From an uncultured bacterium (GTDB lineage Bacteria; Patescibacteriota; Minisyncoccia; Phycocordibacterales; GWA1-40-21): a stretch of 64,000 nt of DNA. The notes beneath the pieces were generated by a model. That model was not told the origin of the DNA and ran no database searches. It saw only the letters and a list, made by a program, of their open reading frames with translations. Where the stretch lies: the NCBI GenBank assembly GCA_963798465.1, contig CAWCTC010000001.1:132315-196314 (forward strand), given 5' to 3'. Below, piece by piece: positions 599 through 46,135 of the stretch (the stretch's first letter is position 1; every line of letters starts with the position of its first letter). A program made the position numbers and the translations under genes.

Positions 599-1720
599 TT
601 AATTACATACCCATTCACCAAACGTACACCAGCTGCCAAACTGCCAACCATGGCAGTGGCAGCTGGGGATACAAGATTGAACCGCCGCAGGTTCTGGTTC
701 AGATCCTCCTTGCGGCAGAACTGCAACAAGTTCAACTTCCTTTGTGACCGTACGAGTTTGGGTCCAGCTGGTTGTATGGGGGCTGTTTGTACAAGATCCC
801 CAATCGCCGACAACATACCAATAATAGGGAATAGTATTTTGTGCAGTTGGCACAACAGAAGGTGTAACTGGGACTGGATTATTTTGAGTTATGTTTATTT
901 TTGATACTGAAATTGGTGTTACTGATGTTTGTGTTGATGTTGAACTCCCCGTCAAAGATTTATTTAACAATTGGTTCAACTTTTTCCTCGTCGAAGGACC
1001 GACTGTTCCTGTGCCTGTCGTCAGACCGTAAGGAGTTAATATTTCACTTGCATATTTCATCTGAAATTTTGATACAGCAACTGCTGTCGCTTCATCATAA
1101 AGATTTTGCGCTCCTGCCGGCGATGTCATAGTATAAACCAAAGCTGTGTCTGGATCGGAATTCAAAACTGTTTTTAATAAAATTACATCATCGCCGGTAT
1201 CTCCGAGCGATAAATCTCTATTGAATGCAGTTATAGGTGCAGTGGATGTCGATACGACGACAGGAACGAAATCGCTTAATTTTATATTGTATTGGGTAGC
1301 CAAAGTATTCAGCTTGGCTATTGTTGTCGTTCCGACAATTCCATCGCCTGATGCTGGCAAACCTGCAGGTATGATTATATCAAGCGGATATTTTTGCTGA
1401 AATACCTTTACGGCATTTTGTGTTGCACTTCCGAATGTGCCGGTGACTGGAAGCTGTGCTTTAGTTTCCAAATTTAATATTGCCTGCAGAGCTGAAACAT
1501 CTTGTCCTGAAGAGCCGACTGTTAAAACTCTGGTAAAAACTGGCGTGTAAGCAACAGGCGTTGTCGTCGTGCTTGGCGTCGGTCCCAGAATAACTACCGC
1601 AGATTGTGCCGATTGAACGACTAAGAATAGAGTGAATAAAACAAAGACAGCCAAAGACATTTTTTCAAGCCAGCCTGGAAGCCTGCTATTGAAAGAAAAG
1701 TTAGATTTTTGATTGTTCAT
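599..1720 (-). CDS. secreted/anchored protein with two peptidoglycan-binding (PG_binding_1-like) repeats and a Trp/Cys-rich C-terminal module
   Basis: N-terminal hydrophobic signal. Two repeats of the type LxxGxxGxDVxxLQxxL...G.FG..T..AV..FQ. C-terminus GDWGSC...SWTQTRTV...GWQFGSWC. Confidence 0.6.
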   Translation of the reverse strand: MNNQKSNFSFNSRLPGWLEKMSLAVFVLFTLFLVVQSAQSAVVILGPTPSTTTTPVAYTPVFTRVLTVGSSGQDVSALQAILNLETKAQLPVTGTFGSATQNAVKVFQQKYPLDIIIPAGLPASGDGIVGTTTIAKLNTLATQYNIKLSDFVPVVVSTSTAPITAFNRDLSLGDTGDDVILLKTVLNSDPDTALVYTMTSPAGAQNLYDEATAVAVSKFQMKYASEILTPYGLTTGTGTVGPSTRKKLNQLLNKSLTGSSTSTQTSVTPISVSKINITQNNPVPVTPSVVPTAQNTIPYYWYVVGDWGSCTNSPHTTSWTQTRTVTKEVELVAVLPQGGSEPEPAAVQSCIPSCHCHGWQFGSWCTFGEWVCN

Positions 1721-2682: not shown

Positions 2683-3390
2683 TTAGAGGCAAGGCCTCTC
2701 AGTTGTTATTCCTCCAATTCCTTTTGTTGTTCCTTCTGTCTCATTAACTCACCCAATGAATCAGAAAGGAATTTTTTATAAGAATTTTTGCTATTAAATT
2801 GTTCAAGTATTATAGACTTATCACAAATACCGTTTAAATCCTTAGTATATTCATCTAAACTTGAGAATACTTTATCTGTATTTATCTTATGTATTTTATC
2901 ATTTAGATTTACATAAGCACTTAAATATAGCAAATATTCATTATCTTTTATATATTTCGCCTTAAATTTACCTTGGAATAATGATCCAGTTCTTTTTTCT
3001 TTATTATTAAAATATAAAGTATAGCCAGTTCCAAGTCTTTGCATAAATTGTGATATTCCGTTATCAGAAATCTGTTTTACTATTAAATGAAAATGATTTT
3101 GATTTAGACAATATGCAATTATTTCAACAAGACGATTTTGATTTTGAGTATTTTGTAATTTTTTATTTTCTAAAAAAGATTTCGAATATAAACCGCCAAA
3201 AGTTTGTTCAGTATTTAATTCAATAATACTTTCTAAAAACCTCTCATAATCATCATTTTTACCAAATATAATCCTCTTATCAATACCACGATTATATATG
3301 TGATATATTTCATTATTAATAAATGGCACTTTTCTAGAACTCATATTGTAAATATTAACAAAATTAAAACTTAGAGGCAAGGCCTCTAAG
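2683..3390 (-). mobile_element. IS200/RAYT-like single-gene unit bracketed by identical hairpin repeats
   Basis: TTAGAGGCAAGGCCTCT (stem AGAGGC/GCCTCT) occurs at 2683-2700 and 3371-3390. The two copies flank the Y1 transposase-like gene exactly, between the uvrD stop and the ksgA start. Confidence 0.5.
2706..3344 (-). CDS. HUH-Y1 transposase-like protein (IS200-like / REP-associated tyrosine transposase family)
   Basis: YHIYNRG, an HUH motif (NHFHLIV), GSLFQGKFK, and a C-terminal Tyr region (EYLLYLSAYVNLN). Start moved to the internal MSSRK because the longer ORF overlaps the uvrD 3' end. Confidence 0.65.
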   Translation of the reverse strand: MSSRKVPFINNEIYHIYNRGIDKRIIFGKNDDYERFLESIIELNTEQTFGGLYSKSFLENKKLQNTQNQNRLVEIIAYCLNQNHFHLIVKQISDNGISQFMQRLGTGYTLYFNNKEKRTGSLFQGKFKAKYIKDNEYLLYLSAYVNLNDKIHKINTDKVFSSLDEYTKDLNGICDKSIILEQFNSKNSYKKFLSDSLGELMRQKEQQKELEE

Positions 3391-5781: not shown

Positions 5782-6864
5782 TTGGGTTTTATTTATATAA
5801 TCCCGTTTCTTGCAAATGCAAATATTGTGTCTGATATTTCAACTTTATTTTCAGGCAATTCCCAAGTCGTGGCTCCCGATGACAGTCAAACACCTGATGA
5901 CTCAAATTCTCAAAATGTGCCCCTGCTTGCAAGCAGCGTAAATTTGAATGCTAATGCTGCAGTCGGTGGAGGAAATATTACTGTTTCAGATGACGGCGAG
6001 GCATTGATGTCTGAAAGCGGTCCTTCTGGGACGATTGCGGATATCGGAGATACTGTTAACACAGGTCAGATTAGTAAATATACTGTGAGAGCCGGTGACA
6101 ATTTGTCATCTATCGCAAAAATGTATGGAGTTACAACAAATACAATTGTTTGGGCAAATAATCTTTCCAAAGCAACTATTCATACTGGCGAATCGCTTTT
6201 GATCTTACCTGTTTCTGGAACAATACATACTGTTGTAAAAGGAGATACATTAGCATCAATTGCAAAAAAATATAATGCTGATGTTGGAGACATCGCGGAG
6301 TTCAATGGTTTGGATTCCAAAGTGCCGCTTGTTGTTGGCAATACGTTGATTATTCCAAATGGAGAAGGTTCAGTTGAAATCAGCGGAAGTGTTACAACAA
6401 ATTCTTCAAATCCGTTTGCTGCCGGAGGGGCATATTACAATCCTTACAGAGGAGGAAGTGGTTCAAACGAAGACAGTTATTATGTCAGACCTCTTGCCGG
6501 GGGAATTATGACGCAAGGTTTGCATGGATATAACGCAGTCGATATAGGAACTCCTATCGGAACGCCGATATATGCTGCGGCAGCCGGACAAGTCATAGTT
6601 GCCAGATCTTCTGGATGGAATGGAGGTTACGGAAATTATATTGTTATTTCTCACGATAATGGAACGCAAACTCTTTATGCTCACTTGAGCCAAGTTCTTG
6701 TCAGCGAAGGAGAAAGTGTCGCACAAGGACAGACAATCGGTCTTTCAGGAAACACCGGAGATGTCTTCCCTGCACCGACAGCGGCTCATCCAAACTCTGG
6801 TGCGCATTTACACTTTGAAGTCAGAGGCGCGCATAACTTCATGCTGAATAAAAGTGAATATTAA
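5782..6864 (+). CDS. LysM-domain M23 family metallopeptidase
   Basis: Two LysM repeats (YTVRAGDNLSSIAKMYG and HTVVKGDTLASIAKKYN) and the M23 signature GNTG...HLHFEVR. Confidence 0.85.
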   Translation: MGFIYIIPFLANANIVSDISTLFSGNSQVVAPDDSQTPDDSNSQNVPLLASSVNLNANAAVGGGNITVSDDGEALMSESGPSGTIADIGDTVNTGQISKYTVRAGDNLSSIAKMYGVTTNTIVWANNLSKATIHTGESLLILPVSGTIHTVVKGDTLASIAKKYNADVGDIAEFNGLDSKVPLVVGNTLIIPNGEGSVEISGSVTTNSSNPFAAGGAYYNPYRGGSGSNEDSYYVRPLAGGIMTQGLHGYNAVDIGTPIGTPIYAAAAGQVIVARSSGWNGGYGNYIVISHDNGTQTLYAHLSQVLVSEGESVAQGQTIGLSGNTGDVFPAPTAAHPNSGAHLHFEVRGAHNFMLNKSEY

Positions 6865-9148: not shown

Positions 9149-10240
9149 TTACTGCGTGACGACTCGCGCTTTGCTCACTCTGTTTATGATTTCCTCGAGA
9201 GTGTTGACACTTGTCGTTATGACTATGGTATTCTGATCGATAATTGAGTAGAGAAAAACAATATTTCCCGAAGAATCTTCAACAACTCTGCAATCCTTGT
9301 TATCAATAGTATAGTCTTGAAATTTTATTGCCGTGCTCAATGATGAGCTTGAATACAAAGCTGAATTATCTGGCAATTCGAATAATTCTTTGAAATTCTG
9401 CCAGAGATCTGTTTCCCAGGAAAGCATTCCTGAAAAAGCCGTATCATAATCGCCCACTTTCAATATCAAAAATCTCTGGTTTCCATTGTAATTGTAAAGA
9501 CCGAACATATACGGATCTTTAAGCGTGAGCTCTATCTGCGAAGGCACGTCTGCTCCGATTAATTGCAAAAATTCGCTTGCGGTCACAAGTTTTTCATTTG
9601 TGCTGGTTCCTTCCGTAAGAAAAATATTTTCAAGCTGTCCAAGCTGTGTCGATGATTCATCGACTCTTTCCTGGAGCGTCGTGCTAAGTCTGTTCTGATT
9701 TATCGTATCTAAATTTATTTCTTCTTCCAAATCCGCAGTTATTATCGGTTGGGAAGAAATTGTTTCAACTGGAACTTTTTTCGGGCCGAATTGCATATTG
9801 ATGAGAAGTTGAGGTATGAAAATAGTAAGTGCACCGCCGAAAACTAGGATCAAACTTATGATTATGATTATTTTATTTATTCCTTGTTTTTTTGTTCCTA
9901 CTTCCGTTTTTCTTTCCTGTCCGATCATCTTTTTGTTCTCGGCGAGAGCCATGTTGATGGAAGATATATGACCGGCTTGAATAGTTTCTTCAACATCGCT
10001 TTTATAAGTCCTGATTATCGGCCGAGTTTGTTTTTTTATTTCGGGAGGAGGAATTTCAGACTCGTCTTTGATTTTTATCAACGGTTCGGCTTTTATTTCT
10101 GGCGTCTGTTCAGGAATGATATTGCTGTTTGTTTTTGGTGCTTCACTCGGATTAATATAAGAATCGAGCTGGCTTTCTATAGCCGCTTTTTCTTTCAATT
10201 GGTCGATTATATTCGGTTCTGCTTTTTTTTCTTCGTCCAT
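9149..10240 (-). CDS. hypothetical single-pass membrane protein
   Basis: 363-aa intact ORF with a central TM segment (IIIIISLILVFGGALTIFIPQLLI). No recognisable domain. Confidence 0.55.
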   Translation of the reverse strand: MDEEKKAEPNIIDQLKEKAAIESQLDSYINPSEAPKTNSNIIPEQTPEIKAEPLIKIKDESEIPPPEIKKQTRPIIRTYKSDVEETIQAGHISSINMALAENKKMIGQERKTEVGTKKQGINKIIIIISLILVFGGALTIFIPQLLINMQFGPKKVPVETISSQPIITADLEEEINLDTINQNRLSTTLQERVDESSTQLGQLENIFLTEGTSTNEKLVTASEFLQLIGADVPSQIELTLKDPYMFGLYNYNGNQRFLILKVGDYDTAFSGMLSWETDLWQNFKELFELPDNSALYSSSSLSTAIKFQDYTIDNKDCRVVEDSSGNIVFLYSIIDQNTIVITTSVNTLEEIINRVSKARVVTQ

Positions 10241-13304: not shown

Positions 13305-13417
13305 ATTAAAATTATATTTATATATTAAATTACGACCAATGTAAATTATATCATGAATTAGTCTTTGCGAGTGAAGCGAAGCAATCCAGTTTCTAGACTG
13401 CCGCGCATTAGCTCGCA

Positions 13418-16183: not shown

Positions 16184-16600
16184 GTTATGTCCTTTACATA
16201 ATTTCTATAGGACATATAATGATATCGGAAAATAGTTTTGATGATATAGACAAGGAATAGTATGCAACTGCTTTCCATGTCCTCCTTTTCATCATAACAA
16301 AAGTATGTTCTTTCAATGAAAGTCTAGCTAACTTTCGAAAAATCAAATAGAAATTGTTTGGTAAAAAGATTATATCTTTCCCATCCTTAAAAATTACATC
16401 ATTTATATATATTATAAAAAGTAATTAAAGGAGTATAAAATTTTTACGAGATATTATCTAATTTGTAGCCGCTCAAAAATATCGCTCAGGTATTTGGAGC
16501 GGTTTTTTATTGGAAAATAAAGAGCGAAGCGACTATATTTCCCTGTATCCTGTAAATACTCGCTGAATTTATGTATTTACAGGGTTATTTCCATACGATA

Positions 16601-16624: not shown

Positions 16625-17029
16625 CTATAATATTACATTTTCTATAATTTCAATCTTTGAAATCAACCGTTTTTTATCAATATAAACCGTAATTACATCA
16701 AATTGCCATTCCGTTTCATCTGAAACGTTTTTTTCCGACAGATATACTTGTATGGTTCTTGCTAATCTCTGTAATTTCCAAGGATGAAGGTTATCTTCCG
16801 GTCTAAAACTATCATTCGTTTCATGCGAAACATTAGTGAGTGTTTCGCATGAAACACTTTTAACCTCGATAAAGTGTAATCTATCTTTGTTTTTAGCTAT
16901 TATATCTATTTCCCCGCATTTTTTTAGATAGTTTCTTTCAATAATTTTAAAACCTCGTTTTTCAATAAATCTGCATGCCAGATCTTCTCCTAAATTACCA
17001 GTTCTTCTTTTATCTGTTATATTTGTCAT
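16625..17029 (-). CDS. yraN: YraN family (UPF0102) endonuclease-like protein
   Basis: GNLGEDLACRFIEKRGFKIIERNY, GEIDIIA, and HFIEVKS motifs. Confidence 0.8.
   Translation of the reverse strand: MTNITDKRRTGNLGEDLACRFIEKRGFKIIERNYLKKCGEIDIIAKNKDRLHFIEVKSVSCETLTNVSHETNDSFRPEDNLHPWKLQRLARTIQVYLSEKNVSDETEWQFDVITVYIDKKRLISKIEIIENVIL
16817..16856. other. two inverted parS-like 16-mers forming a 15-bp perfect hairpin inside yraN
   Basis: CGTTTCATGCGAAACA (16817-16832) and TGTTTCGCATGAAACA (16841-16856). They encode VSCET and VSHET in the protein. Confidence 0.35.
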
Positions 17030-17290: not shown

Positions 17291-17489
17291 GTTTTACCCA
17301 AAAAGTGTTTATTTTAAAGCCTAAATTTTTGAATATAATTCCATTTTTTATAAATTATGTTGTGATGTGTCTGATAAAAAATTGAGAGTGTCTTTGAAAA
17401 AAATTCAAAAAACTATGGAAATAATTTTTGAAATGCGAACGAAGGGGAACACAATAATTTGTAATTTGGGTCCCACCCCAAATTACAAA

Positions 17490-17679
17490 TACGGAAAACG
17501 CGCCGAGATCGCTTCGCTTATCTTCCATTACATGGACGGTATACCTTTCGTATTTTTTTACATGAGTACATGTTAAAAAATATACTCAAGGTTTTTCGAT
17601 TCCCGGACGCAAGCAAAATTGTTTGCTTGCTCACTCGCACAAATGAAAAACACTCAGAATTCTGAGTGTTTTTCATTTG
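17490..17679 (-). other. tRNA-like trailer module behind tRNA-Gly(GCC)
   Basis: 56-nt perfect palindrome at 17632-17687 that includes the acceptor 3' strand. On the minus strand it is followed by TGCGAGTG, a 9-bp hairpin, CCGGGAATCGAA (complement of the T-arm 3' half), a long A/T hairpin, ATAC, and a TGTAA-loop hairpin. Confidence 0.45.
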
Positions 17680-17750
17680 TGCGAGTGCCGGGAATCGAAC
17701 CCGGGCCCAATCCTTGGCAAGGACTAGTTCTACCATTAAACCACACTCGC
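17680..17750 (-). tRNA. tRNA-Gly (anticodon GCC)
   Basis: Manual cloverleaf: acceptor GCGAGTG/CACTCGC, anticodon loop TTGCCAA, T-arm CCGGG-TTCGATT-CCCGG. No encoded CCA. Confidence 0.9.
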
Positions 17751-17898: not shown

Positions 17899-18342
17899 AT
17901 GAAAAAATGTTCAAAGTGTAAAAAAGAAAAATCAGATGATGAATTTAATTTTAAAAATAAAGGTTTAAAATTACGACAGTGTCAGTGTAAAGAATGTACT
18001 AGATTATTAATAAAAAATCATTATAATGAGAATAAACAGTATTATTTTAGTAAAGCTAAAAAAAGAAATTTAGAAATTAAAACAAACATTGTTAAATATT
18101 TACAAAATTACTTATCAAATAAGTCATGTATTGATTGTGGAGAGTCAGATATTGCAGTTCTTGAATTTGATCACACAAATCGATCAAAAAAATTTAAAGC
18201 TGTTTCAACTCTCATAAGATGTGGTTACCCAATGGAGGTAATACTGGAGGAAATAAGTAAATGTGATATTAGATGTGCGAACTGTCATAGGAGAAAGACG
18301 TCAAAAGATTTTAAATGGCTTAAAACAATAATGCCCCTGTAG
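17899..18342 (+). CDS. HNH (His-Me finger) endonuclease
   Basis: CxxC pairs, LEFDH, and CANCHRRKT motif. The last 10 nt overlap the 5' end of tRNA-Arg. Confidence 0.7.
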   Translation: MKKCSKCKKEKSDDEFNFKNKGLKLRQCQCKECTRLLIKNHYNENKQYYFSKAKKRNLEIKTNIVKYLQNYLSNKSCIDCGESDIAVLEFDHTNRSKKFKAVSTLIRCGYPMEVILEEISKCDIRCANCHRRKTSKDFKWLKTIMPL

Positions 18343-18404
18343 CTCAACGGATAGAGTACTGGTCTTCGAAACCAGTGGTGAAGGTTCAATTCCTTCCAGG
18401 GGTA
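18333..18404 (+). tRNA. tRNA-Arg (anticodon TCG)
   Basis: Acceptor GCCCCTG/CAGGGGT, anticodon stem CTGGT/ACCAG with loop CTTCGAA, T-arm GAAGG-TTCAATT-CCTTC. Confidence 0.9.
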
Positions 18405-18447
18405 CAAAAAGTTTATTATATTTAGTTATTTTGATATAATTCAAACA

Positions 18448-21628: not shown

Positions 21629-21836
21629 CAAAAACTAAAATAACCTTCAATTGAAGGTTATTTTAGTTTTTGTCGGAGTGTTCAAAGTGCTGGGAGCACT
21701 TTGAAAGGGATTCGAAGCCCGATTGTGTATTTTTTACAAGTTTAATAACGAAGTAAAAAATCCAATCGGGATACTGGTCGTGTAACGACCGAAATTCCCG
21801 GCAAATCTGGATTGGAAGTTTCGAAACTCCCGGCGA
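21629..21836 (+). other. tRNA-like trailer module behind tRNA-Pro
   Basis: 60-nt perfect palindrome at 21621-21680 that incorporates the acceptor strand. It is followed by CGGAGTG, a hairpin with loop TGGGA, GGGATTCGAA, a long hairpin CCCGATTG...CAATCGGG, ATAC, the hairpin GGTCG-TGTAA-CGACC, and GAAATTCCCGGCA. Confidence 0.45.
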
Positions 21837-23106: not shown

Positions 23107-23308
23107 CAAATGAAATAACCAACTTTTTTAAGTTGGTTATTTCATTTGTCGAGGCAAGCGAACAAACTGCTTTGTTCGTGTGGGTGAATCGAAAGACTTT
23201 TCCATATGAGCGAAGCGAAGCAGAAAAGTACCTGGCTACGTCGTAGCAGATTCACCCTGCCCGCACAAATGAAAAATCACTCAGTTTTCTGAGTGATTTT
23301 TCATTTTG
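23107..23308 (+). other. tRNA-like trailer module behind tRNA-Gly(TCC)
   Basis: Hairpin at 23107-23148. GGGTGAATC (23182-23190) pairs with GATTCACCC (23249-23257), enclosing GAAAGAC and two hairpins. The module ends with a direct repeat of the tRNA 3' end (23249-23265) followed by a second hairpin (23266-23308). Confidence 0.5.
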
Positions 23309-32001: not shown

Positions 32002-32205
32002 CAAATTTTTTATAAAAATTTGGGCAGCTTAAGGAAGCACCTGCGTGCTTTCGTGTTGGAATCGAAAGACTTTTCCTTATCGAATGAGCAAAGCGAAATG
32101 AGATGGAAAAGTACCTGGCTATGTAGTAGCCGATTCCAACTCAAGCGCACAACGCAAGCAATTAAAAATCGCCGGTTATCTATAAGGCGATTTTTTCTTG
32201 CGTTG
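32002..32205 (+). other. tRNA-like trailer module behind tRNA-Lys
   Basis: Hairpin at 32002-32022. GCAGCTTAAG resembles the acceptor 5' strand. GTTGGAATC (32055-32063) pairs with GATTCCAAC (32132-32140), enclosing GAAAGAC, the ACTTTTCC/GGAAAAGT hairpin and the GGCTA-TGTAG-TAGCC hairpin. The module ends TCAAGCGCA (32141-32149) and is followed by a hairpin at 32150-32205. Confidence 0.5.
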
Positions 32206-32350
32206 TGCGGACCGGACGAACGGAGTGAGGAGGTCGGGCTGTAACTTTGCTTTGAGTTCACGAAAAGCAAAAGTTATAGCCACAGTGAAATCAAAGTTTC
32301 AAATGAAGATAGTTTAAGAAGACTCTGATTGGAATGAACCAGTTTTTAGA

Positions 32351-35733: not shown

Positions 35734-35871
35734 TCATATATATTTGCCGGTATGAAACCTAATCACAGACATTTTTTCCTCAGCTTCTTTAACAGAAGCA
35801 TTACCGAAATTGAATAAAGATAATCTCTCTATCAATCTCGGCTCGGGTGGCTTTGGGAAAGTTTTCATCAT
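35734..35871 (-). CDS. hypothetical 45-aa protein (below the ORF-track size cutoff)
   Basis: MMKTFPKPPEPRLIERLSLFNFGNASVKEAEEKMSVIRFHTGKYI. Its ATG directly follows the TAA of the preceding short ORF. Confidence 0.3.
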   Translation of the reverse strand: MMKTFPKPPEPRLIERLSLFNFGNASVKEAEEKMSVIRFHTGKYI

Positions 35872-39926: not shown

Positions 39927-39957
39927 CGGGCGGGTTTTGCTTCGCAAAACCCGCCCG
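39927..39957. terminator. GC-rich stem-loop terminator
   Basis: GGGCGGGTTTTGC ... GCAAAACCCGCCC. Confidence 0.75.
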
Positions 39958-40010
39958 ATTTTTCATTTTCCTAACCCTAAAGGATAAGGAAAATATATTC
40001 GCTTCGCTCA

Positions 40011-41511: not shown

Positions 41512-41761
41512 TTCTGCACCTCCAATTTTTTGTAAAACATCATTCTTACCTATTATAGCATTAATTACGTTAATGTCAAGAGTAGTAAAAATAACACATA
41601 TTCAAGGGTGTTTTTAATTGTACTGTGGTCAGGAATAATTTTCTCGTCGTCACTCGAAAATTTTCACTACCCTGACTCGTTTGTTTTGCTTGCTAGCAAA
41701 ACATAACTCCGTCTCGCACATGTATCAAAAAACACGAAGCAGTTCGTGTTTTTCTATCATG

Positions 41762-45958: not shown

Positions 45959-46135
45959 CAACGACAAATAAAAACAGCCTGGGAAGGCTGTTTTTATTTT
46001 GGCGTCATGGATGAAAGGTGAGATTCGAAAGACGGAGCCGACACGAACGATAGTGAATGAATCGGCGAGTCGGGGTCGCAAGTTCTTATGAGCGAAGCGA
46101 ATTAGAAACTTGGACCGAATCTCACCTCTTCCGCA
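45959..46135 (+). other. tRNA-like trailer module behind tRNA-Ser
   Basis: Hairpin AAATAAAAACAGCC...GGCTGTTTTTATTT. GGTGAGATTC (46017-46026) pairs with GAATCTCACC (46117-46126), enclosing GAAAGAC and hairpins that include a GAGCGAAGCGAA cap. A perfect 19-nt direct repeat of the tRNA 3' end lies at 46117-46135. Confidence 0.5.

Follow-up and report, generated by a model that had tools for sequence, protein, structure and literature searches.

Integron attC sites and the attP(+) site of the CTX phage are used as folded single strands. They hold an inverted copy near a direct copy of the target, carry bulged bases or a mini-hairpin on one strand, and are conserved in structure rather than in sequence. 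The Mauriceville retroplasmid captures transfer RNA (tRNA) sequences and integrates at tRNA genes. An insert with a complete tRNA on one flank and a partial 3' copy of it on the other is generally accepted as the mark of integration into a tRNA gene (PMC9897764). We describe here a small element behind the tRNA-Gly(GCC) gene of an uncultured bacterium of the Patescibacteriota, in which short antisense copies of the tRNA 3' part are combined with a direct copy. The locus lies in a stretch of 64,000 nucleotides (nt) of contig CAWCTC010000001.1 (assembly GCA_963798465.1), which was analyzed at its full length and is called the window in the following; positions refer to it unless another locus is named. 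The Gly(GCC) copy is an old and partly decayed member of a non-coding family that is located just 3' of tRNA genes. This family is widespread in Patescibacteria and apparently undescribed; no description of the element was found in the literature searched, the coverage of which, like that of Rfam, is not exhaustive.

Organization of the Gly(GCC) locus

A unit of the family consists, in the order behind the tRNA, of a terminator-like hairpin (term1), an arm antisense to tRNA positions 66-73 (A'), a second hairpin (hp), an arm antisense to positions 54-65 (T'), a core with a three-way junction, and a direct repeat (DR) of the tRNA 3' part that runs from about position 54 or 57 to position 73. 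The elements are about 110-200 nt in size and non-coding. At the Gly(GCC) locus, where tRNA positions 54-73 form the segment mirrored by the downstream element, the following parts were identified, with the basis of each assignment in brackets:

17680-17750, minus strand: tRNA-Gly(GCC), no encoded CCA (ARAGORN; Rfam tRNA model, 66.6 bits)
17640-17679, minus strand: term1, perfect 40-nt palindromic hairpin CAAATGAAAAACACTCAG-AATT-CTGAGTGTTTTTCATTTG, left part of the element (sequence)
17632-17639, minus strand: A' arm TGCGAGTG, Watson-Crick complement of tRNA positions 66-73, which comprise the 3' strand of the acceptor stem and the discriminator (sequence)
17609-17630, minus strand: hp, hairpin of 9 base pairs (bp) GCAAGCAAA-CAAT-TTTGCTTGC (sequence, fold)
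17595-17606, minus strand: T' arm CCGGGAATCGAA, perfect antisense copy of tRNA positions 54-65, which comprise the T-loop and the 3' strand of the T-stem (sequence)
17543-17592, minus strand: core helix P2, diverged type B, a long A/T-rich hairpin closed by ACCTT...AAGGT, whose 5' side contains the conserved TTGAG with its bulged A (fold, covariance-model alignment)
17537-17542, minus strand: linker J2/3, ATACCG, family consensus RUACYG (covariance-model alignment, family consensus)
17524-17536, minus strand: core helix P3, TCCA-TGTAA-TGGA, with the UGUAA pentaloop of the family (sequence)
17499-17523, minus strand: altered DR of the tRNA 3' part (sequence, fold)
17457-17490, minus strand: hairpin term2, ATTTGTAATTTGGGGTGGGACCCAAATTACAAAT, which ends the locus (terminator-like scan, ortholog alignment)

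The first parts belong to a perfect palindrome of 28 + 28 nt (17632-17687), made up of CACTCGCA (17632-17639), the 40-nt hairpin (17640-17679) and TGCGAGTG (17680-17687). Its right arm is formed by the final 8 nt of tRNA-Gly(GCC). The hairpin hp is placed exactly between A' and T', which corresponds to the junction of T-stem and acceptor stem (positions 65|66). Similar hairpins are present in type-A modules, and the ortholog of this hp in the related locus L024 shows the same stem with a CTGC loop. In the DR, GAT is followed by a mini-hairpin insertion, AAGCGAAGC(GA), and then by (GA)TCTCGG, which pairs with the T' arm. The pairing with T' is still given for GATCTCGG (17503-17510), and the acceptor part is decayed to CGCG. 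The distal hairpin term2 is kept in L024; it is flank sequence and not part of the element.

The strand from T54 to the end of the core folds with -94.7 kcal/mol, compared with -33 kcal/mol for shuffled sequences (z = -15.6). In the predicted fold, tRNA positions 54-73 pair with both antisense pieces, term1 lengthens the resulting helix and the 9-bp hairpin forms a side branch. A terminator scan of the locus flagged the distal hairpin (17457-17490) alone. By eye, term1 resembles an intrinsic terminator with the inner stem CACTCAG/CTGAGTG followed by TTTTT, yet the T-run is paired within an extended stem of 18 bp, and for this reason the hairpin was not flagged.

All features that the original prediction had listed here (palindrome, 9-bp hairpin, T-arm complement, A/T hairpin, ATAC and TGTAA hairpin) are present in the sequence. 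The DR had not been listed and is present in altered form. Together with this closing repeat, the covariation of the arms with the upstream tRNA and the scale of the family (core types, tRNA identities, genomes and metagenomes) go beyond that prediction.

Linkage to tRNA genes and extent of the family

The gene of the CCA-adding enzyme beside the Gly(GCC) locus was used to retrieve 80 syntenic loci, all from metagenome-assembled genomes of Patescibacteria (Paceibacterota, Parcubacteria). Among these 80 relatives L024 is the closest, with 96% protein identity. The window and the related loci contain 219 tRNAs with enough flanking sequence. An antisense T-loop 12-mer and/or a 17-nt DR was found within 450 nt downstream of 50 of them, about a quarter, and in none of 216 upstream control regions (0/216). 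Genuine matches to the regular expressions for the cores of types A1, A2 and B were all located within 700 nt downstream of a same-strand tRNA (30/30). A covariance model that was built solely from metagenomic copies, and whose E-values are rough guides, gave 21 matches in 1.1 Mb of related loci, 20 of which are downstream of a same-strand tRNA. The predicted recurrence of an acceptor-including palindrome with a downstream module at several tRNA loci is supported.

The same model placed the Gly(GCC) module (17503-17636, minus strand; 29.3 bits, E about 4e-6) and the module behind tRNA-Pro (83.3 bits, E about 3e-21) in one family, as had been proposed from the letters of the two loci. The Gly(GCC) stretch is regarded as a diverged member on account of its match of 29.3 bits. 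A third match in the window (35772-35870, minus strand; 15.7 bits, E about 0.03) was treated as chance; it has neither arms nor a tRNA and is located in an apparent small open reading frame (ORF).

For the metagenomes, a pattern of 22 positions from the 3' half of the type-B core was used, which matched at least 120 loci. Since this motif served for the selection, the conservation of RUACUG and CUGUAAG in the metagenome set is given by construction. Among the 124 matches listed, 87 follow a same-strand tRNA, mostly 75-160 nt upstream, and 30 anticodons for 14 amino acids are represented by these tRNAs. A further 20 of the matches listed are located at contig edges, and several of the remaining 17 are second units in tandem arrays. 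One of the 17, L146, has a type-B module behind a tRNA which is split by a group I intron (603-840, minus strand; RF00028, 77.6 bits) and was missed by ARAGORN because of this interruption. L146 thus shows both kinds of insertion, group I intron and type-B module, in one tRNA gene.

The family comprises at least four core types (A1, A2, B and D). Type-D cores (CAGCGGA...ATGAGCTGGTGCCCAGA...) were found in L016 (about 9870-10000) and in L113 (minus strand, upstream of the type-B module at 2902-3035), where they are enclosed by T' and a repeat and form tandems with A1 or B units. The stretch CUGGAUGAG...GAAAC in the type-D core of L113 was considered as an RNA motif and rejected, as it is not kept in L016. 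In addition, 21 tRNAs were found with a perfect 10-nt T' arm and no recognised core, and further core types therefore probably exist.

The arms follow the upstream tRNA

In the window, the T' piece changes from locus to locus exactly like the T-arm of its own tRNA. It reads CCGGGAATCGAA at Gly(GCC), AGGGATTCGAA at Pro, GGGTGAATCGAA at Gly(TCC), TTGGAATCGAA at Lys and GGTGAGATTCGAA at Ser. The same was observed for the 87 listed metagenome matches with a tRNA. With up to 1 mismatch in 12 positions, T' fits the cognate tRNA in 59/87 cases and a non-cognate tRNA in 4/87; with up to 1 mismatch in 8 positions, A' fits in 49/87 and 5/87 cases, respectively. The DR, which always follows directly after the core, matches with up to 2 mismatches in 17 positions in 39/87 cognate and 2/87 non-cognate comparisons. 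Mismatches of T' concentrate in the two outermost bases, and the 10 nt facing positions 54-63 show 3.8% mismatch.

At G-U or mismatched pairs of the tRNA, the arms represent the Watson-Crick complement of the 3' strand and not a copy of the tRNA 5' strand. The arms are therefore interpreted as antisense guides rather than as remnants of a second tRNA copy. For the same reason a reading as 5'-half copies, i.e., as a degenerate tandem tRNA, was rejected; in addition, the T-loop part is antisense for GATT-type loops.

The DR is exact over positions 57-65 in 38/83 copies. An insertion of 1-2 nt after positions 58-60 is present in the DR of 14 copies, and some copies, including the Gly(GCC) locus, have a mini-hairpin inserted there. 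P3 starts from TTC at its base, like T54-C56, in 44/83 copies, so that the DR often spans 20 nt. Both junctions have the form TTC|GA(A/T)TC in 44/83 copies.

The term1 of Gly(GCC), 40 nt long, is about 90% identical to the 43-nt hairpin at 23266-23308, which is the second one of the Gly(TCC) locus; the two differ by 2 loop substitutions and by 3 insertions or deletions of one base each. The link between the two Gly loci that had been proposed on the basis of this hairpin therefore holds. A search for the hairpin family CAAATGAAA...TTTCATTTG in about 1.9 Mb (window and fetched loci) gave 6 occurrences, each directly after a tRNA 3' end or a DR (6/6), one of them behind tRNA-Leu in an unrelated metagenome. 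The hairpin family is thus not distributed at random with respect to tRNAs, and the objection that it might be a randomly placed generic terminator repeat is excluded. In a sub-lineage with the hp GTGAC-TAAAY-GTCAC, the copies at tRNA-Ser(act), tRNA-Ser(tga) and another RNA have term1, hp and core in common and are distinguished by their A' and T' arms. It follows that term1 belongs to the element and that the arms are its sole target-dependent parts.

Two further observations concern the tRNA-Pro loci. The orthologous term1 hairpins of the window (21629-21672) and L018 (12868-12911) have wholly different sequences, and both are perfect palindromes of 42-44 nt flanked by CACTCCGA/TCGGAGTG. This suggests that the two flanking arms at tRNA-Pro are regenerated from each other. 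In L049 (about 6290-6390, minus strand) and L026 (180-265, plus strand), 33 nt of tRNA-Pro, from the variable loop to the 3' end, are directly repeated about 67 nt downstream and without a core; this is another kind of tRNA 3' duplication.

Core structure and covariation

An alignment of 56 distinct metagenomic copies was used for the type-B core. Helix P1 is formed by T' and the DR. P2a consists of GCCCGAUUG-A-G, with a bulged A, and C-CAAUYGGG, and continues into a variable helix P2b. P3 is short and closed by C-UGUAA-G. In this alignment 89.5% of the helix cells are paired, compared with 76% in shuffles, and changes on both sides of a pair were found in 231 versus 86 cells. The covariation score reaches 0.377, compared with 0.143 in shuffles; none of 500 shuffles reached this value, and the score collapses when the partners are shifted by one column. 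Compensatory changes are abundant in P2b and P3, with 9, 23 and 33 double changes at the stem pairs of P3 among the 56 sequences. P2a covaries in the related genomes, a set chosen independently of the pattern, as seen in GCCTGATTG/CAATCAGG, GCCTTGTTG/CAACAAGG and GCCCCGTTG/CAACGGGG. Variants in this set also include the linkers ATACCG and GGACTG and the loops A-TGTAA-T, G-TGTAA-C and C-TGCAA-G. In type B, the strands at the junction read GAA(G) and RUACYG; their counterparts in type A1 are GAAAGAC and GG.

P2a contains 37 G-U pairs and no A-C pair. This excess and the invariable co-orientation with the tRNA argue for the tRNA-sense strand as the folded strand. The G-U excess is compatible with RNA and with single-stranded DNA alike.

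Further elements in the window

A scan of the whole window with Rfam 15 at gathering thresholds identified 7 tRNAs only. An element is located in the trailer of 6 of them, and tRNA-Arg(TCG) carries none. The cores behind Pro and Gly(GCC) belong to type B, those behind Gly(TCC) and Lys to type A2, the one behind Ser to type A1 and the one behind Arg(GCG) to a short form of A1. Besides Gly(GCC), the elements are:

21629-21803, plus strand: type-B element behind tRNA-Pro(TGG), with term1 21629-21672, A' TCGGAGTG 21673-21680, hp 21681-21705, T' 21706-21716, core 21717-21790 and DR GAA-AT-TCCCGGCA 21791-21803 (sequence; covariance model, 83.3 bits; fold z = -15.6)
23107-23308, plus strand: type-A2 element behind tRNA-Gly(TCC), with term1 23107-23148, a degenerate A', hp with CTGC loop, T' 23182-23193, core 23194-23248, exact DR 23249-23265 and, at 23266-23308, the second hairpin, similar to the Gly(GCC) term1 (sequence, regular expression match, alignment)
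32002-32290, plus strand: type-A2 element behind tRNA-Lys(TTT), with T' 32056-32066 and DR 32132-32149 (sequence, regular expression match)
41627-41761, minus strand: A1-short element behind tRNA-Arg(GCG), with parallels in L017, L021 and L026 (sequence, regular expression match)
45959-46135, plus strand: type-A1 element behind tRNA-Ser(TGA), with T' 46017-46029, core 46030-46116 and exact DR 46117-46135 (sequence, fold, regular expression match)

The element behind tRNA-Lys(TTT) is followed by a second, A1-short-like unit. The Lys module is predicted to fold into a tRNA-like minihelix with a three-way junction, in which an acceptor-like stem is combined with a single arm and a lengthened T-stem. 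The A1-short element behind tRNA-Arg(GCG) consists of a hairpin, an A' of 4-5 nt and an AGAC...GACC core followed by ACA; it has neither a T' arm nor a long DR.

The mini-hairpin motif GAGCGAAGCGAA/GCGAAGC is enriched over the whole window, with 14 matches (up to 2 mismatches) compared with 5.2 expected, e.g., at 39950-40010 (minus strand), 13369-13380 and 16522-16533. It was rejected as a marker of the family. The motif is not family-specific, because its matches include coding sequence and the apical loops of ordinary terminators as well as those of the module hairpins.

Variation between related genomes

At the orthologous Arg(TCG), Gly(GCC), Pro and Gly(TCC) loci, about 70-80% of the species have no recognisable core, and the others have cores of type A1, A2, B or D or unrecognised ones. 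The spacer between tRNA-Arg and cca measures about 40 nt in the window, L018 and L020, and about 170 nt with an A1-short unit in L017.

Behind tRNA-Gly(GCC), L024 has the same term1, A', hp, T' and distal flank as the window, and an A2 core replaces the B-like core. The copy in the window is regarded as a hybrid, since its hp is of the kind which is usually paired with A cores. At the same locus, L018 has a B core with arms altered to fit its own acceptor stem, and L017 has an A1 core nested within a B-like core. L025, L165 and L187 contain units in tandem. Behind the tRNA-Pro of L078, two B cores enclose a complete unit, made up of repeat, hairpin, A', hp, T' and core, which is specific for another tRNA. 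Such an arrangement would be expected if a circular unit inserted via core homology. The A1-short form (tRNA, conserved hairpin, A' of 4-5 nt, core, ACA) resembles a permuted version with a minimal repeat.

A comparison of L024 (9640-9880) with the window (18333-18405) shows that tRNA-Arg(TCG) is inverted in L024 and carries an A1-short unit, and that the window copy is bare. This is a local inversion beside module-bearing tRNAs.

Interpretation

In our judgement the chances are about even that the family represents a selfish, protein-less mobile element, which is targeted to tRNA genes and active as a folded single strand. Such an element would insert site-specifically in the 3' part of a tRNA gene and would leave an intact tRNA and a new terminator behind. 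The insertion would duplicate the segment that can pair with the element's own arms, and the arms would select the target by base pairing. The active form may be a single strand, either a transcript or single-stranded DNA, folded as a dumbbell or as a tRNA-like minihelix. In the dumbbell, term1 would cap the helix of A' and acceptor strand, hp would branch off at 65|66 and the three-way junction would be located at the end of the T' helix. Integration might start from a circular or unit-length intermediate, with the help of a host or trans-acting enzyme or by the element's own catalysis. The observations in support are the architecture, the complementarity of arms and tRNA (30 anticodons among the matches listed), the covariation of the core and the co-oriented linkage to tRNAs. 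In addition, copies are patchy, swapped, nested and in tandem, and the arms vary at constant term1, hp and core.

Several points weigh against this interpretation. All genome loci represent one synteny block, and the metagenome set was picked by a motif of the core 3' half. The evidence consists of DNA sequence throughout, which does not tell an RNA from a single-stranded DNA form. No enzyme, autonomous copy or co-occurring protein was found in the neighbourhoods of the modules: when 533 ORFs within 4 kb of 124 modules were clustered in a search for a partner protein, the recurrent families all belonged to the Arg/Gly/Pro synteny block. Neither a circular junction nor an exact pair of empty and filled sites in one population was seen. 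Many copies have a decayed A' arm or DR, a conserved and covarying structure would be expected equally of an RNA useful to the host, and mobility as such leaves unexplained how the arms are rewritten for a new tRNA.

More tentatively, and below the level at which we would call it probable, the elements may form a gene-less class of their own. A' and T' would then program the insertion into virtually any tRNA gene and apparently also into other RNA genes with a tRNA-like 3' end, the paired positions 54-73 would be the duplicated segment, the cores A1, A2, B and D would be new ribozymes or folds that recruit a host enzyme, and a small dumbbell or circle of single-stranded DNA or RNA would be the active form.

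Among the alternatives, the most probable one is a structured RNA which is useful to the host, although we consider it unlikely. It would be co-transcribed with the tRNA through read-through of term1 and form a tRNA-like shadow that has the acceptor and T helices of its own tRNA. RNase P and the CCA-adding enzyme might process this RNA, which could act as decoy, regulator or processing aid for the tRNA. The hairpin hp occupies the very position at which the D and anticodon arms branch off from the minihelix, the module by itself has the acceptor-like stem, single arm and extended T-stem described for Lys, and the UGUAA loop of P3 fits, in our own reading, the T-loop motif pattern UGNRA. The covarying core helices and the constant position of the module on the tRNA strand agree with such an RNA as well. 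A beneficial RNA is difficult to reconcile, however, with its absence from about 70-80% of the orthologous tRNA loci and with at least four unrelated cores that are interchangeable at one locus, where a core was swapped even between genomes with 96% identical proteins. The nested, tandem and truncated copies, the frequent loss of the acceptor part of the DR and the terminator-like hairpin that separates the tRNA from the module also speak against it.

There is a small chance that the loci are passive scars without function, in which the DRs were left by integrase insertions and the arms arose by palindrome extension, i.e., by template switching or fold-back synthesis at a terminator hairpin. 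A tRNA followed by a partial repeat of its 3' part is the classic pattern of attL/attR sites (PMC9897764), and the 33-nt tRNA-Pro repeats of L049 and L026 occur without a core. A' directly continues the term1 palindrome, and term1 stays a perfect palindrome while its sequence changes wholly between orthologs. Fold-back copying, however, predicts a contiguous A'T' segment, and the two arms are always split at 65|66 by a conserved hairpin. Scars would also not be expected to hold cores with conserved sequence and covariation over very many unrelated loci, or the same term1, hp and core with different arms, and repeated internal deletions with identical boundaries are implausible.

We see only a slim prospect for a small circular RNA replicon of the viroid or retrozyme kind, which would be driven by a ribozyme and whose DNA copies would be fixed in tRNA genes. 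The cores would represent new ribozymes with self-cleaving or self-ligating activity, T' would act as substrate strand, and cleavage at UUC|GA would free the unit RNA. The three-way junction with a substrate-like P1 of T' and repeat, the sequence TTC|GA(A/T)TC at both junctions in 44/83 copies and several unrelated cores on one scaffold, as known from the classes of self-cleaving ribozymes, would fit this picture, as would the resemblance of A1-short to a circular permutation of the long form and the folding of the unit as a closed dumbbell. On the other side, no known ribozyme family was matched even at permissive thresholds, the hammerhead motifs are absent, no reverse transcriptase is linked to the elements, and the data are DNA assemblies throughout.

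A generic terminator repeat or a chance similarity of tRNA trailers, which might be thought of because A/T-run hairpins are common in a genome of 34% GC and the GCGAAGC loop occurs in ordinary terminators too, retains a negligible probability and is refuted by the empty upstream controls (0/216), the E-values of about 3e-21 and 4e-6, the restriction of the hairpin family to tRNA 3' ends or repeats and the failing non-cognate control.

If the family is mobile, it would be among the smallest site-specific elements known, with roughly 150 nt, no gene and a targeting function in two short antisense arms matched to the tRNA. This would raise the question of which activity, ribozyme or host enzyme, inserts the elements, and they could be a minimal guide-programmed insertion module. 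Should the more tentative idea of a gene-less class be true, ultra-small bacteria would hold a natural, minimal and programmable nucleic-acid-guided insertion system. Either way the elements are relevant to annotation, since they fill much of the scarce intergenic DNA behind tRNA genes and create partial tRNA copies. They also appear to promote local rearrangement, as seen in core swaps, inversions and tandem arrays.

Neighbouring genes

The recurrent families among the clustered neighbours are YraN/UPF0102, the CCA-adding enzyme and an ORF of 220 amino acids (aa) without Pfam match. No recombinase or reverse transcriptase linked to the elements was found among the clustered ORFs. The elements themselves offer no room for an ORF, as the core motif is mostly 75-160 nt away from the tRNA end.

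In the window, a gene of the UPF0102/YraN family, a predicted nuclease, is located downstream of Gly(GCC) (16625-17029, minus strand), and this family is found near modules in 11 metagenome loci. The recurrence looks like synteny and not like a functional link, because it is always observed within the same Arg/Gly/Pro block. Between tRNA-Gly(GCC) and tRNA-Arg(TCG), a Cys-rich ORF of 147 aa (17899-18342, plus strand) shows CxxC...CANCH, which is HNH-like by eye, and has no Pfam match; it overlaps the start of tRNA-Arg(TCG). The ORF of about 220 aa ends a few nt upstream of tRNA-Gly(GCC) in 8 metagenome loci (including L209, 1296-1961, minus strand). Both ORFs may be free-standing genes of the homing-endonuclease kind.

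Comparison with known systems

Database searches returned no known relative. Permissive scans of the Pro, Gly(TCC), Ser and Gly(GCC) modules with Rfam 15 gave no structured family and only chance matches of hairpin type (microRNA precursors, terminator-like small RNAs). The consensus type-B module had no match in the phage and plasmid collections. In viral contigs the A2-type pattern gave 15 matches, none of them with the module architecture, and this number is within chance expectation. The element is placed outside the known kinds because a defining feature of each kind fails here, be it the integrase, the recombinase boxes, the intron domains or transposase, or the intact T-loop.

The published group I introns in tRNAs of Patescibacteria are located in the anticodon loop (position 35/36) and are a different feature. 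A close parallel in the arrangement is found in genomic islands, prophages and integrative and conjugative elements (ICEs) that integrases place in tRNA genes, and in the cis-mobilizable elements (CIMEs) derived from them, which have no integrase; all of these share the insertion in the tRNA 3' part, the restored tRNA and the partial repeat from the T-loop to the 3' end at the far side (PMC9897764). In these islands, ICEs and CIMEs the element likewise brings its own terminator, and tandem accretion is seen. They differ from the present family, which measures 110-200 nt, has no integrase, gene or kilobase cargo, holds an inverted, split copy of the target in addition to a covarying core, and is found at many tRNAs with otherwise identical elements.

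As in attC and the attP(+) of CTX, A' and T' can, as computed on the sequence, pair with positions 54-73 or with the DR and form a duplex that mimics the target. The target here, however, is a tRNA gene and not dif or attI, no IntI or Xer signatures were seen in the element, its core is conserved in sequence, and no recombinase was identified. The exon- and intron-binding sites (EBS/IBS) of group II introns, the guides of IS200/IS605 and the bridge RNA of IS110 also have short segments complementary to the target, which are placed by hairpins in a constant element and vary with the target. In contrast, the present family has no intron domains, transposase, bridge-RNA fold or Rfam match, the paired segment itself is duplicated and nothing is encoded. 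When the group II intron was considered for this family, the arms were found to pair with the 5' flank, but the element is shorter than 200 nt and matches no group II model. Readings as group II domain V, k-turn, T-box or box C/D were rejected for misfit to sequence and organism.

The element is predicted to adopt a fold like the acceptor/T minihelix and is in this sense a candidate tRNA mimic. Viral tRNA-like structures, the tRNA-like domain of transfer-messenger RNA and the Mauriceville retroplasmid share the minihelix mimic at the 3' end of the unit and the linkage to tRNA genes. Unlike these, the present family has a three-way junction in place of the T-loop, copies the adjacent tRNA with its mimic and has no reverse transcriptase or coding capacity. 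With the hammerhead and other small self-cleaving ribozymes it shares a junction of three helices (P1, P2 and P3) that is supported by covariation. The hammerhead types I, II and III were rejected, as CUGANGA and the context of A15.1-U16.1/H17 are absent when the junction strands are read. Twister, pistol, hatchet, hairpin, hepatitis delta virus (HDV) and other Rfam ribozymes gave no match in the Rfam scans.

In size and distribution, the family is similar to miniature inverted-repeat transposable elements (MITEs), repetitive extragenic palindromic (REP) elements and Rickettsia palindromic elements, which are also small, non-coding and rich in hairpins, with many copies per small genome and a patchy occurrence among relatives. 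Unlike in MITEs, the target duplication comprises 17-20 nt (about 4 nt in the A1-short form). The present family differs from all three in its strict site and orientation at the tRNA 3' end and in its inverted repeats, which are derived from the target and change with it.

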